From Eledone cirrhosa (taxonomy: Eukaryota), in the NCBI GenBank assembly GCA_964016885.1, contig OZ024742.1, positions 299,770,001 to 299,834,000 of the forward strand: DNA of 64,000 nt. The letters are read 5' to 3'. A model generated the notes under the pieces. The model did no database searches, was not told where the DNA came from, and worked only from the letters and a program-made list of their open reading frames with translations. Positions 1,929 to 63,290 of the stretch are shown here, piece after piece (position 1 is the first letter of the stretch; each line of letters opens with the position of its first letter). The position numbers and the translations under genes were made by a program.

Positions 1929-1984
1929 ACTGCTATATATATTTCGATGATAGCCATTGAATGGCTATGACCTCATCAGGCAGT
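1929..1984 (-). ncRNA. Minimal type I hammerhead ribozyme motif
   Basis: Minus strand: ACUGC-CUGAUGA-[GGUCAUAGCCAU UCA AUGGCUAUCAUC]-GAAA-UAUAUA-UA-GCAGU. Stem I is a perfect 5 bp, stem II is 12 bp with one C-C mismatch, and stem III is palindromic. Confidence 0.85.
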
Positions 1985-2144
1985 TAGTCAGTCCTTAGAT
2001 ATGCCGGCTCTGTGTTTATAGTGTTGATGGTATCAGAGCCTTGGTATATATATATATATATATATATAATTGGTGTTGGATGTTTAGAGTGTCCGAATGT
2101 GGTAGGCCGTATGAGCACTCGATGCCCTCATAGAGCAGAGTATG

Positions 2145-2319
2145 ATATCACAGAAAAAAGAGAACCAGTGTTGCGACGAAAGGAATTTATTGGACATATT
2201 ACAATTGTTTCTCGGGCGACCAGCTCGAAGCACAATCGATGTGGTGATCAAACCTGACTCTGTAATATGTCCAATAAATTCCTTTCGTCGCAACACTGAT
2301 TCTCTTTTTTCTGTGATAT
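2145..2319. repeat. Fold-back inverted repeat with about 59-bp arms, ending at (TA)n
   Basis: 2145-2203 is the reverse complement of 2261-2319 with one mismatch. Confidence 0.9.
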
Positions 2320-2497
2320 ATATATATATATATATATATATATATATATATATATATATATATAAATATATATATAAGTATGTGTACGTACATATATATA
2401 TGTGTACAGACGTACAGTAGTATGTATATATATACTGTACATGTATACATATACTATATATACATATGTATATATATACATACTACTGTACGTATGT

Positions 2498-2772
2498 ACA
2501 CCTATATGTATGCACATATACATACTTATATTTAGGTATCAGCCGTACTAAGAGTGAGAAATGAAATTTCGTTTCATTCTTTTCCATTATATATATATAT
2601 ATATATATATATATATATATATATATATATATATATATATATATATATATATATATATATATATATATATAATTATATATAAATGGAAAAGAATGAAACG
2701 AAATTTCATTTCTCACTCTTAGTACGGCTGATACCTAAATATAAGTATGTATACGTACATACATATAGGTGT
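2498..2772. repeat. (TA)n-centred inverted duplication with about 90-bp arms
   Basis: 2498-2588 mirrors 2682-2772 around a (TA)n tract. Confidence 0.9.
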
Positions 2773-3404
2773 TGTTTTCCATACAGTAACGGTTAAACTC
2801 ACATGTAATAATTCTTTACACACATCTCACTGTGTAACACACTTTTCTCTGTGTAATATATTTGTATTTGAGCTCAGTTGAAAATTCTATGTTCTTCTTT
2901 GAACTAATATTATTACTGTGAACTGCGGAATACTCTAATTCCGATCCTTGTATAATTAACGCGCTCCAAATTGTTGAGCTAATAAATTCGAATGTTTGGG
3001 CTGCTCTCTCTAGCATTTTCCCCAATTCATGAGAGCCGTTATTTGATGCAAATAACACGTGTTTTCGCCCTGCTCTGGGCAGCGTGTATATTTGCGTTCT
3101 CTCTTTCCATTAGGCTAGATGTGTAGCGAACAATTCCACACTTGCTGACTGAGGAACCTGTGGACTTTTACACTACACATTTCAGTGGCGAAACGAAATA
3201 GATTCGTATCAGCAAGCTTATAGTTATAAGGTTGGTAATTTAAAACTCTACTTCGGAGATTTGATTCTGACTTAGTGTTCTTTCTATTTAATTGCCAAAC
3301 TGTAGGTGTTGTTTTCCATACAGTAACGGTTAAACTCACATGTAATAATTCTTTACACACATCTCACTGTGTAACACACTTCTCTCTGTGTAATATATTT
3401 GTAT
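2766..3404 (+). mobile_element. Terminally redundant non-coding mini-element (102-bp direct repeats) ending in (TA)n; pseudo-LTR-like
   Basis: 2766-2867 is nearly identical to 3303-3404 (period 537), and the 3' copy runs into (TA)n. Confidence 0.6.
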
Positions 3405-3449
3405 AATTATATATATATATATATATATATATATATATATATATATATA

Positions 3450-3586
3450 TTAAGTTGGACAGAAGTTTGTCGCCGTTTTCAAATTTTTTATTGACTTTGG
3501 CATTTCTTAACATTAGGAAAATTTAACAAGTCAGAATAATCACCGCCTCATCTTGAAAAGCGGTGCGAACTTACTAACTAACCCTG
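3450..3586. mobile_element. Probable mariner-type MITE inside (TA)n
   Basis: Imperfect inverted ends TTAAGTTGGACAGAAGTTTGTCGCCGTTTT and AAAAGCGGTGCGAACTTACTAACTAACCCTG, flanked by TA. Confidence 0.4.
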
Positions 3587-59813: not shown

Positions 59814-59890
59814 CAGGGTGTCCCCCAAACATCTATATATATATTTATTAGAATGCTGTTGAAGTGTGCATACATTTTTGGGACACCCCG
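59814..59890. mobile_element. Tiny Tc1-type MITE
   Basis: TA|CAGGGTGTCCCCCAAA ... TTTTGGGACACCCCG|TA. Confidence 0.6.
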
Positions 59891-59891
59891 T

Positions 59892-61274
59892 ATCATCATC
59901 ATCATGATCATCATCGTTTAACGTCCGTGTTCCATGCTTGCATGGGTTTGGACGGAGGATTTTCCCACTTGAGGCAAGAGTGGTTATCTTGCTCGCATAG
60001 GACTATCTGGCGGGTTTTCTACAGCTGGATGCCCTTCCTAAAACCAACCACATTTACAGTGTGGGGCTGGGAGGTTTTTACCGTGTTGCCTACACGGCCA
60101 GATTACAGCGTGAACTGTGTGTTTTTTTGACGTGACACCTACACGATCTCATTTGTTTCGGCCTTGATGTTGTGGCACCAACATAACTTTACATTGAAAG
60201 GGGTGGATGGGGTGGGGTGGGGGGGGTGTATTTTGTTAGAGATGCCTACTGACTGTAGTAGGTTTTACTTTGTATTTAGGTAAGGCGGGTCTTCTCTTTT
60301 ACTGAGTACCGCCAAAGGTCTCGGTCCAGTGACATTGTCTTGGTGAGGTGTAAGTGTGTGAGGTCGGAATTTATCAGCTCGTCCCAGGTTTTTCTGGGTC
60401 TGCCTATTCCGTTGCTACCGTCTATCTTTATTGCCCTGCACTTTGTTATACAGCTATCGTCCTTCATGCGCATCACGTGACCATACCAACGTAGCCTTCT
60501 CTCGAGTAAACAACATCTGATCCCTCTTATTTCTAATGTTTTCCTTAGTTCGTTTATGCTTTGCCGTTCACGTATATTACTATTACACATCCAGCGGAGC
60601 ATGCAAGCTTCGTTCCTCTCTAGTCTGCGTATATCCTCTGCACACAATGCCCAGGTCTCACTGCCGTGCAACATTGCTGTTCGTATGCAGGCATCGTACA
60701 ACCTGCCTTTCATTTTTAGGGAGAACCCTTTAGCGGCTAATAGTGGTATGAGCTCTCTGAACTTTTTCCACCCAGTTCTGACTCTAGCTACTGTACTTTC
60801 AGAGCACCCTCCCCCACTGCTGATTTTATCACCCAGGTAACGGAAGCTGTCCACTATTTCTATAGAACCCTCTGCGCAGTTGAAAGAGCTAGTATTCTGT
60901 GGGCACTTGCTGCTACTTATTGCCCCAGAACACCGGCCACATGTAAAATCTATGTTCTTAGTTAGCTTACCTGTGATCCCACTACATCTTTTATGCACCC
61001 AAACTTTGCATTTCGGACACAAAATGGAGTTTCTACCTACGCCTTTCCTACACTCTGAGCATGGCCACTTCCCGGAGGGGACCGCCGCCTTATTTTCTTT
61101 CTTACAAACTAGAACTTTAGTCTTAGCCAGGTTAATTTTAAGGCCTTTTGATTCTAGGCCGTGCTTCCATGTTTGGAATTTCTTCTCTAGCTCGGCCATT
61201 GTTTCAGCTATGAGCGTTAGATCATCTGCGTATAGGAGTTCCCATGGGCAGCCGGTCTTGAACTCCACTGTTAT
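59892..61274 (-). mobile_element. 5'-truncated RTE-clade LINE (RT C-terminal half intact, (GAT)n tail)
   Basis: ORF 60276-61289 contains CPWELLYADD, GLKINLAKTK, FRYLGD, MLHGSETW, RRLRWYGHV and GRPRKTW. A plus-strand (CAT)n tail lies at 59892-59914. Confidence 0.9.
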
Positions 61275-62211
61275 AGGGTAAAGATACATAGAACGAAAAA
61301 GTCGGTGTAGCAGCAGAGGAAAAAATATGTGTAAATATGATAATAAGGGCGCTGCGGAGTTGCAAATGGGTTACATATGAAAAAAGTTTGCCTCACCATT
61401 TTGTTTGTTTACCCTCGCGTCCCCTTTATTTACGTGTCCCAACGACTTTTTTTAGCCGTTGCTCGCACCAACCGGAGGTATATGGTCTGTAAAGCGATGA
61501 AATGCCTATGATAGTTGGAAGATCACTGATGAAGGACAAACTTTTTTCATATGTAACCCATTTGCAACTCCGCAGCGCCCTTATTATCATATTTACACAT
61601 ATTTTTTCCTCTGCTGATACACCGTCTTTTTGGTTCTATGTATCTTTACCCTTTCTAGCAGTCTCTCTCTGTGTTAGCCTCTTCCTCACCCTTCACTCAC
61701 TCATTCTCTGTCACTACCTCTCCTCCTCCTCTTTCTTCCCGTTTGACCTGTGAGTAATTCTTTTCTCTCACATTCTCGGCCAAGCTGGTCGGAATTTTTT
61801 ATCTCTCTCGTCTACGATTTCACAGAACTTATGTTTACCGAATTCGCAGACCAGACCCCTTCTTCCTCCCGTTAGACCTGTGCGAAATTCCTTCCTTGCT
61901 CACATTTCAACCAGGTTTGATGGACTTTATTCTCTCGTTCACGATTTCACCGAACTTAAATTCATAGAAATCTGGGACTTGTCTCCTTCTTCCTCACTTT
62001 CTGTTGCCTCACCATTTTGTTTGTTTACCCTCGCGTCCTCTTTATTTACGTGTCCCAACGACTTTTTTTAGCCGTTGCTCGCACCAACCGGAGGTATATG
62101 GTCTTTAAAGCGATGAAATGCCTATGATAGTTGGAAGATCACTGATGAAGGACAAACTTTTTTCATATGTAACCCATTTGCAACTCCGCAGCGCCCTTAT
62201 TATCATATTTA
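61275..62211 (+). mobile_element. Non-coding PLE-like element: 116-bp inverted 5' arm plus 208-bp direct repeats (pseudo-LTR), ending in (TA)n
   Basis: 61275-61390 mirrors 61537-61652; 61388-61595 is nearly identical to 62004-62211. Confidence 0.7.
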
Positions 62212-62769
62212 TATATATATATATATATATATGTATATATATGTATGTATATATATGTATGTATGTATATATATGTATGTATATATATGTATGTATATAT
62301 ATATATATATATGTATGTATATATATGTATGTATATATATATATATATATATATATATATATATATATATATATATATATATATATATATATATACGCGT
62401 ATATATATACAAATAAAATATAGAGTTATTAACTCATATAGGTACCCTGCAATTAAAACAAGCTCAAAGTTTAAATACCGAACATTGTATAGTAATATAT
62501 ATGTATAAATAAACACAGTAAATCTCGTGTCTAAAATTACGAGAGTATAAGATACGACTAATGTTTTAATATATATATGTATATATATATATATATATAT
62601 ATATATATATATATATATATATATATATATATATATATATATATATATATATATGTATATATATTATATATATATCATGTATAAACATTCATATATATAT
62701 TAATATATATTTACATACATATATATGGATCCCGTGTCCGCGAATCGCCAGGAATCTTAGCCGAGAATG

Positions 62770-62851
62770 ACTCTCTGATGAAGAAAGGATTCTCCATGGT
62801 CTCCATTTGGAGACTATGTATATCCCCTTTCAGAAACTAATTAGTTAGAGT
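62770..62851 (+). ncRNA. Minimal hammerhead ribozyme motif
   Basis: ACTCT-CTGATGA-aGAAAGG..CATGGTCTCCA/TGGAGACTATG..CCTTTCa-GAAA-CTAATTAG-TT-AGAGT, with perfect stem I and palindromic stem III. Confidence 0.8.
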
Positions 62852-63220
62852 GAAATTTAAGTTAATTACTATAATTAAGTTAATTACTATAATTTTCCTA
62901 TTTTACGTCTTTTATATATATATATATATATATATATATATATATATATATATATATATATATATATATATATATATATATATATATATATCCGTTGGAA
63001 ACAGAAAAGGTCATAGAAATGAAGAGTGCTCTATGTAAGTTAATTACTATAATTAAGTTAATTACTATAATTTTCCTATTTTACGTCTTTTATATATATA
63101 TATATATATATATATATATATATATATCCGTTGGAAACAGAAAAGGTCATAGAAATGAAGAGTGCTCTATGTAAGTATCAGAGCAAAATTTAATGTATAA
63201 AAATCAATACAATATAATTA

Positions 63221-63290
63221 CCTCATTACCAGAGGTTACCCGAATGAGGCGAATACGAAATAAACGACTTCATTCGTTCGTCAGACGAGG
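63221..63290 (-). ncRNA. Hammerhead-like motif with GUAA in place of GAAA
   Basis: Minus strand: CCUCGU-CUGACGA-aCGAAUGA...UCAUUCGg-GUAA-CCUCUGG-UA-AUGAGG, with 6-bp stem I and 7-bp stem II. Confidence 0.6.

Follow-up and report, generated by a model that had tools for sequence, protein, structure and literature searches.

The window described here is a 64,000-nt stretch of the Eledone cirrhosa genome (contig OZ024742.1, positions 299,770,001-299,834,000 of a 3.0-Gb assembly), which is 63% AT, rich in (TA)n, and for which an initial annotation had listed about 15 hammerhead-like folds (16 coordinates). We regard it as likely that the hammerheads of this window lie at the 3' ends of TA-inserted retroelements, most of them type I motifs of Hydra-clade Penelope-like elements (PLEs) and non-coding derivatives of these, and that one overlooked family, here termed M, carries a hammerhead with its blocks in S-G-C order, predicted to be pseudoknotted and kink-turn-bent and probably a self-cleaving ribozyme.

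Family M (61275-62209, + strand) consists of an inverted 5' arm (61275-61390) and a 616-bp non-coding partial tandem that ends in (TA)n. Two predicted type-SGC hammerheads are present, the first at 61468-61533 + (predicted cut after 61482, CUGAUGA at 61526) and the second at 62084-62149 + (predicted cut after 62098, GAAA at 62114, CUGAUGA at 62142). The helices assigned to the second copy are IIIb (62084-62089/62129-62134), IIIa (62093-62097/62117-62121) and stem I (62099-62104/62136-62141), all on the + strand. CUGAUGA follows GAAA rather than preceding it, a non-circular permutation; the block order (cleavage block, GAAA block, CUGAUGA block) was revealed by diverged copies of the family. 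Tandem periods in M are ∼470-640 bp, and at 21 of 30 loci a (TA)n tract is found no more than 135 nt from the predicted cut.

Abundance was assessed in a sample of 60 evenly spaced 10-kb stretches of the genome (600 kb). A scan for the S-G-C order in this sample gives 7 matches (0.35 in shuffles), while a genome-wide pattern for M, which prescribes neither stem I nor helix IIIb, gives 14,761 matches and none for the reversed-pattern control. A more diverged SGC subfamily adds at least 73 genome matches, and no SGC pattern match is found in viral contigs. An older SGC subfamily (L303-L322, L128, L201), 65-80% identical and with clustered copies on C10 and C14, differs in its stems, and its stem II may be a contiguous helix of 4 bp.

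In an alignment of 23 M copies, the pairs of the SGC fold hold in 98.2% of cells, a value that none of 500 shuffles reaches. For a larger set of 35 non-redundant copies, drawn from 96 matches by leaving out near-duplicates, TA-truncated ends and the diverged subfamily, 96.2% of cells are paired over all helices (equalled by 0 of 500 shuffles), 14 of 18 pairs change on both sides, and slid registers give only 27-49% pairing. Stems I and III are each 99% paired and covary, and the two best pairs in an all-against-all scan are stem I pairs. The core letters are all invariant, which is in part forced by the selection pattern. Stem III comprises 5 bp, a bulge and a further 6 bp, the extra helix that prolongs it measuring 5.6 bp, compared with 4.7 when cross-paired and 4.2 when shuffled. 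The two parts are separated by a 3-nt bulge plus GA on one strand, with GA also on the opposite strand. A kink-turn has a 3-nt bulge followed by tandem G.A/A.G pairs, set between two helices, and letters of this kind are present in 12,516 of the 14,761 M matches (85%).

The same fold appears in an unrelated sequence context. The SGC pattern matches 8 metagenome loci, two of which (L386 and L390, on fish-like contigs) were counted as keeping the fold; the other six were left out, three because stem I has 0-1 bp and three as judged by eye. Both are unrelated to M in sequence, yet have a 6-bp stem I and a full stem III, and in both the motif lies ∼60-100 nt past the end of an R2-like open reading frame (ORF), in the 3' untranslated region (UTR). 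Homologues of the ORF protein are fish reverse transcriptase (RT) proteins, some of them named R2-type, and the protein (P0004) matches R2 and LINE-1 RT structures. A search of the E. cirrhosa genome with this protein returned 30 R2-like loci, 16 of which carry the SGC motif intact in the 330 nt downstream of the ORF (compared with 8 of 1,500 random 330-mers), and most of the remainder carry visibly mutated copies of the same motif. Two subfamilies among them differ in their stems, and stem II has 3-5 bp with small insertions. Kink-turn letters also occur in L386 and L390, where they are part of the search pattern; within the R2-like loci they are non-standard in L413 and absent from L437. With 27 pattern matches the family is rare; it is mostly single-ended, one SGC copy is present at 23 of 25 loci, and (TA)n forms the end at 9 of 23. 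From these protein matches, L386, L390 and L412-L441 are assigned to the R2 group, which combines an RT with a restriction-like endonuclease at the C terminus; the narrower name HERO is one that we presume from a motif.

The type I scan used for the rest of the window called for an exact CUGANGA/GAAA/UH core with paired stems, and yields 6 matches in the window and none across all 40 block shuffles. Nine of the 16 coordinates listed by the initial annotation have such an intact core with stems (1929, 19457, 19521, 36433, 36621, 39534, 39701, 41546 and 62770); of these, 19457 passed one scan and the core at 19521 was read by eye, a later scan recovering neither. Of the remaining seven, four carry position-4 variants that are fixed family-wide (CAGAAGA at 26771, 38996 and 42479; CCGAAGA at 4230), and 17929, 49475 and 63221 are decayed copies of real families. 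Overlooked altogether were type I motifs at 3149 +, 27734 + and, decayed, 4793 +, as well as the permuted motifs at 61526 + and 62142 +. The families had been described as sharing little sequence, which needs qualifying, as A and the 49475 copy align at 83% and H and I share a layout and a tail motif. Rfam gives no hammerhead family among the best 150 of 294 window matches, the best being sub-threshold microsatellite hairpins, and none among 27 matches on 61200-63400.

Families A, F, H, I, J and L, which cover 10 of the 16 sites (A, 1929; F, 26771, 38996 and 42479; H, 36433 and 36621; I, 39534 and 39701; J, 41546; L, 63221), are assigned to the 3' ends of autonomous Hydra-clade PLEs by their motifs, domain layout and (TA)n ends. 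The modules had been taken as mostly non-coding; these ten sites are instead termini of elements that carry ORFs elsewhere in the genome, the window copies being 5'-truncated or internally deleted pieces. Families A and F have a single ORF coding for an RT as well as a GIY-YIG endonuclease at the C terminus, with a CxCx5C linker and CxxC and CxH motifs. A near-complete family-A copy of ∼4.4 kb (L014) has the RWR and DKT motifs, the CxCx5C linker and CxxC..CxH, and is arranged as (TA)n, terminal repeat, ORF, 3'UTR, terminal repeat with the family-A hammerhead, and (TA)n. Other, non-Hydra PLE ORFs are also present in this genome (L016:5678-7000; L373 and L374, minus strand; L377:1-591).

In the window, the family-A module at 1884-2044 (−; core 1979, predicted cut after 1934, AATAAA past stem I) corresponds to the final 160 bases of the element and lies between two (TA)n tracts. 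A second, internally deleted family-A element at 63299-64000 (+) retains the upstream tail, the 5' region and an endonuclease remnant (63539-63991) with the GIY-YIG domain and CxCx5C linker that are the Hydra signature; the hammerhead of this element lies 1.1 kb past the window. Pfam gave no match for the endonuclease remnant. By exact scan, 8 of 21 distinct loci have the family-A hammerhead at a distance of ∼1.1 kb on the 3' side of the endonuclease. An A-related copy at 49415-49578 (+; core 49480) has stem I broken at the first pair. The family-F element at 25523-26845 (+) is 5'-truncated and comprises an inverted tail (25523-25553), an endonuclease remnant (25547-25726), the 3'UTR and a CAGAAGA hammerhead at 26776, such that the remnant at 25568 belongs to a second Hydra family and runs on into its own hammerhead. 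The linkage holds in 18 of 20 family-F loci. It had been suggested that the modules were mobilised by the PLEs whose remnants lie at 25568 and 63569; each endonuclease proves to belong to the same element as its own hammerhead.

The CAGAAGA core of family F is fixed, with position-4 A in 20,351 genome matches and any other letter in 215. Further F copies are found at 38972-39106 (−; core 39041) and 42386-42546 (+; core 42484), the latter nested in a larger composite repeat. Many family-F ends (window 41747-42546 and 38880-39106; L063-L082) lie inside this larger repeat, with flanks shared on both sides, and such copies are therefore not independent (TA)n insertions. The start of the composite repeat we take to be Helitron-like. 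Families H and I each form an inverted pair of autonomous Hydra termini, H at 36300-36730 (cores 36485 − and 36629 +) and I at 39407-39804 (cores 39594 − and 39707 +); in both, the AATAAA hexamer overlaps the 3' strand of stem I. In full-length family-H elements (L250, L252, L117:7058-7430) the 3' end is repeated in inverted form on the 5' side, the boundary of this copy being shared, and the short H and I palindromes resemble centre-deleted versions of such elements. Family J (41300-41640 +, core 41549) is the 3' end of an autonomous Hydra family, and family L (63128-63298 −, core 63284) is a Hydra terminal repeat with a mutated GAAA in the window copy. Linkage to a Hydra ORF is seen in 11 of 20 loci for family I (picked for a longer 5' flank), in 2 of 14 fetched loci for H, in 1 of 6 for J and in one locus for L.

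Families B, G and K are non-coding, retrozyme-like partial tandems carrying type I hammerheads. Together with M, they are the only families demonstrated as non-coding partial tandems. The unit is ∼537-539 bp in B, ∼489 bp in G and ∼528 bp in K, the tandem period is visible in 5 (B), 7 (G) and 8 (K) of 12 loci each, and the longest ATG-initiated ORF is 66-90 aa. Family B, missed by the initial annotation, lies at 2766-3407 (+; core 3149), and the end of a family-K tandem lies at 62726-62912 (+; core 62775). Family G, likewise missed (27400-30637 +), also has a fixed CAGAAGA core (hammerhead at 27734), and its unit is split by a 2.6-kb insertion. This insertion (27838-30420) is a tandem repeat, the start of which resembles a non-autonomous Helitron. 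Family C (4187-4352 −) has its true core at 4345, CCGAAGA, with an 89-nt stem II; 12 loci gave no ORF, and no parent element was found among them. Family D (4760-4960 +, core 4793), also missed, is a decayed copy with intact copies elsewhere in the genome, and family E is present as a decayed copy (17913-17990 −) and as an inverted pair (19373-19573; cores 19501 − and 19527 +). Elsewhere in the genome, L104:3650-4610 and L108:9305-9955 are classic retrozyme arrays of 310-bp units set head to tail, each unit bearing a small type I hammerhead, and L186 and L193 contain a hammerhead-like motif with a CTGAGAA core and a long stem III.

The hammerheads of this genome are real and exceed chance. The 600-kb sample contains 67 exact-core type I motifs, spread over 32 of the 60 stretches, compared with a mean of 0.4 in 15 shuffles and 1 in a complement decoy. 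Extrapolation from this sample gives ∼335,000 type I motifs in the genome (bootstrap 235,000-440,000), and as a cross-check a single subclass pattern gives 111,408 genome-wide matches compared with 3,838 for its control. Orientation is also as the initial annotation had proposed: the nearest (TA)≥5 tract is on the downstream side in 49 of the 58 motifs flanked by tracts on both sides (p 9e-8), and (TA)n lies within 60 nt downstream in 26 of 67 motifs and within 60 nt upstream in none. The proposal that hammerheads of many families occur in large numbers at the 3' ends of elements, facing (TA)n and tied to GIY-YIG PLEs, is borne out, and several of its details are not. AATAAA, named as part of the module, follows the cut within 25 nt in only 11 of 67 motifs (background 3%; 31 of 67 when the cut base and ATTAAA are counted); palindromic stem III, said to be usual, occurs in 37 of 67; and the density is ∼1 exact core per 9 kb genome-wide rather than ∼1 per 4 kb.

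For the type I families, cleavage would trim tandem or read-through transcripts to single units, and where a short palindrome forms stem III it would take place in dimers. The Hydra RT-endonuclease would nick (TA)n and start copying 20-135 nt beyond the cut site. Internal initiation described for another PLE is in line with a copying start past the cut, and since inserts keep the stretch past the cut, the template would be uncut, multimeric or circular. In M, stem III (5 bp, bulge, 6 bp) would enclose the cleavage strand and GAAA. The 3-nt bulge and tandem G.A pairs would fold stem III back on itself, so that its far end meets the stem I strand via one nucleotide, and CUGAUGA would then complete the core. 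We infer the kink from this geometry, since the far end of stem III is unlikely to reach stem I through a single nucleotide without a sharp bend.

Where M obtains its enzymes is suggested by its layout. Its partial tandems, its inverted arms and the occurrence of two alternative 3' ends make it most likely that M is carried in trans by a Hydra protein. Its fold, common to the 3'UTR of R2-like retrotransposons, may derive from them. The alternative that M is a SINE-like (short interspersed element) partner of the R2-like retrotransposons themselves would account for the SGC fold at the 3' end of both and for their similar tail lengths. It is rather unlikely, as the M unit has no primary-sequence match to any of the 30 R2-like loci, the R2-like family is rare and ends in (TA)n at only 9 of 23 loci, and the tandems, arms and alternative 3' ends resemble those of Hydra families.

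Two further readings, each unlikely and in our view about equally so, accept the fold and differ over its activity. In one, M would be non-catalytic, a 3'-end recognition structure for the RT that arose from a hammerhead with a decayed stem II. This agrees with the single pair in stem II, the retention in inserts of sequence beyond the predicted cut, 5' ends without a mark of the cut, and the spread of family F to 20,351 copies despite its non-canonical core letter; it fits poorly with CUGANGA, GAAA and UH being preserved, despite varying stems, in the M subfamilies, in R2-like elements and in the two fish-like contigs, and hammerheads with a one-pair stem II exist. In the other, M would cleave only as a strand-swapped dimer, the S and G hairpin coming from one unit and block C from its neighbour, with no kink needed. 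The partial tandems with periods of ∼470-640 bp would permit this, and type I PLE hammerheads are thought to act as dimers, but 23 of 25 R2-like loci carry a single copy, and 85% of M matches retain the bulge and G.A letters.

Read as an ordinary type II hammerhead, M would comprise GAAA, a short stem III, stem I as a hairpin, and CUGAUGA. A 4-bp hairpin that precedes CUGAUGA in the window copy suggests this reading, which is very improbable: on the 23-copy alignment it gives 75.7% pairing compared with 98.2% for SGC, 149 of 500 shuffles are as high compared with none, and the stem III pair forms in 39%, on which grounds it was rejected. Chance products of AT-rich, repeat-rich sequence, a reading favoured by the 63% AT of the window and the Rfam results, are refuted by shuffle, complement-decoy and reversed-pattern controls near zero and can be set aside.

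Several observations nevertheless weigh against the preferred reading of M as an S-G-C ribozyme moved by Hydra elements. Stem II is supported at its closing pair only (83% paired and covarying in the 35 copies); its distal extension scores 10.2 compared with 9.5 ± 0.4 in shuffles and is 79% paired with no two-sided change, and the helix through which stems I and II interact in published type-SGC RNAs is unsupported in M (12.3 compared with 12.2 shuffled). Kinship among the M copies inflates the covariation counts, and the 5' ends of copies show no concentration at the predicted cuts. No autonomous ORF is attached to M in 131 loci, so that layout is what points to its carrier. Two M pairs spaced 2.9 kb apart were considered as an autonomous parent and rejected, the interval being an unrelated opposite-strand insertion. 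In published work, a recent test of nine predicted retrozyme dimers from animals saw cleavage in only one, and PLE minimal hammerheads are reported to cleave poorly. The sequence itself shows how the families are built, their linkage to ORFs, the (TA)n at their ends, the order of the blocks and the covarying helices. For the fuller proposal, namely an active, non-circularly permuted hammerhead in animal genomes that is enabled as a pseudoknot by a kink-turn, is a standing 3'UTR feature of an R2-like clade from fish to this invertebrate, and has reached ∼15,000 copies through a non-coding TA-targeting retrozyme, we judge the case evenly balanced.

Other repeats surround these families. Long, near-perfect inverted repeats flanked by (TA)n (2148-2316, 19197-19296, 22615-22886, 31987-32085, 39861-40526 and 57630-57709) are probably tails of further families and are potential sources of double-stranded RNA. 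A hAT transposase remnant lies at 23822-25382 (+; PF05699, PF14291), and there are three remnants of long interspersed elements (50619-54022 −, 60276-61370 −, 8378-10900 −) with RT, zf-RVT and endonuclease domains, one RT being accompanied by a PHD finger. An abundant ∼190-bp SINE-like repeat, including several inverted pairs, occurs at 6950-7485, 12033-12699, 15519-15742, 41916-42328, 58639-58843 and 59314-59525, and a degenerate purine-rich tandem array of ∼80-bp units spans 56039-57354.

The type I picture of the window is largely known from the published literature (PMC4209133, PMC7229834, PMC8557442). Hydra elements with a 3' hammerhead and (TA)n preference, including Hydra-1_Obim of octopus, have been described (Craig et al. 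2021, PMC8557442), and share with the elements reported here the C-terminal GIY-YIG domain, the CxCx5C linker, the DKT motif and one of RWK type, a type I hammerhead at the 3' end and insertion into (TA)n, as well as partial tandems and inverted 5' copies. The present case differs in having at least six families in one window, an element of ∼4.4 kb (L014) where the published size is 'generally <3 kb', core position-4 letters that are fixed as A in F and G and as C in family C, and an estimated ∼335,000 hammerheads. The minimal PLE hammerheads and non-LTR (lacking long terminal repeats) retrozymes (PMC4209133, PMC7229834, bioRxiv 10.64898/2026.07.22.740005), the latter published as non-autonomous PLE derivatives, are similar in that families are many and motifs mostly single and truncated, and in having pairs on opposite strands, a palindromic stem III and non-coding tandems of a few hundred bp. 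The M hammerhead differs from those of retrozymes in being S-G-C rather than type I. What is new at the type I level is the scale, together with the fixed CAGAAGA core of the predicted hammerheads of F and G.

The closest relative of the M motif is type-SGC HRIMA-1 (Eckert et al. 2023, PMC10085705), which has the same S-G-C order, full catalytic core, crossing stems I and III, and covariation. HRIMA-1 comes from metatranscriptomes and M is genomic and high-copy; moreover, in M a kink-turn-like bulge is followed by a second helix of stem III, stem II is either minimal or displaced, and no stem I-II helix was found. By its authors' account, such RNAs turned up in no genome of a known organism, one type-GCS candidate excepted, and the spatial connection between the permuted strands was left open; a covarying family that is genomic and has a likely kink-turn would offer a concrete geometric answer, along with many natural variants. 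R2-group retrotransposons (PMC7650587) resemble the R2-like elements described here in their RT, C-terminal restriction-like endonuclease and self-cleaving RNA in a UTR, and differ in having 5' hepatitis delta virus (HDV)-like ribozymes where a permuted hammerhead is predicted here in the 3'UTR, which would be a new ribozyme site in non-LTR retrotransposons. A literature search, with most subscription papers outside its scope, yielded no account of a hammerhead, permuted or with a kink-turn, from any animal retroelement and placed octopus hammerheads only in the Hydra paper (PMC8557442); ribozymes are likewise not mentioned in the available part of a recent octopus repeat annotation. The predicted type-SGC, kink-turn hammerhead in animal retroelements is accordingly the new part of this analysis, and because standard type I-III scans all miss the S-G-C motif, censuses of animal ribozymes may be incomplete. 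Reported counts are 2,000-9,000 for minimal motifs and up to 120,000 for retrozymes, the latter in axolotl (PMC4209133, PMC7229834, bioRxiv 10.64898/2026.07.22.740005); with an estimated ∼335,000 type I motifs, compared with 120,000 in the much larger axolotl genome, E. cirrhosa is a good system for the role of PLE hammerheads in vivo.

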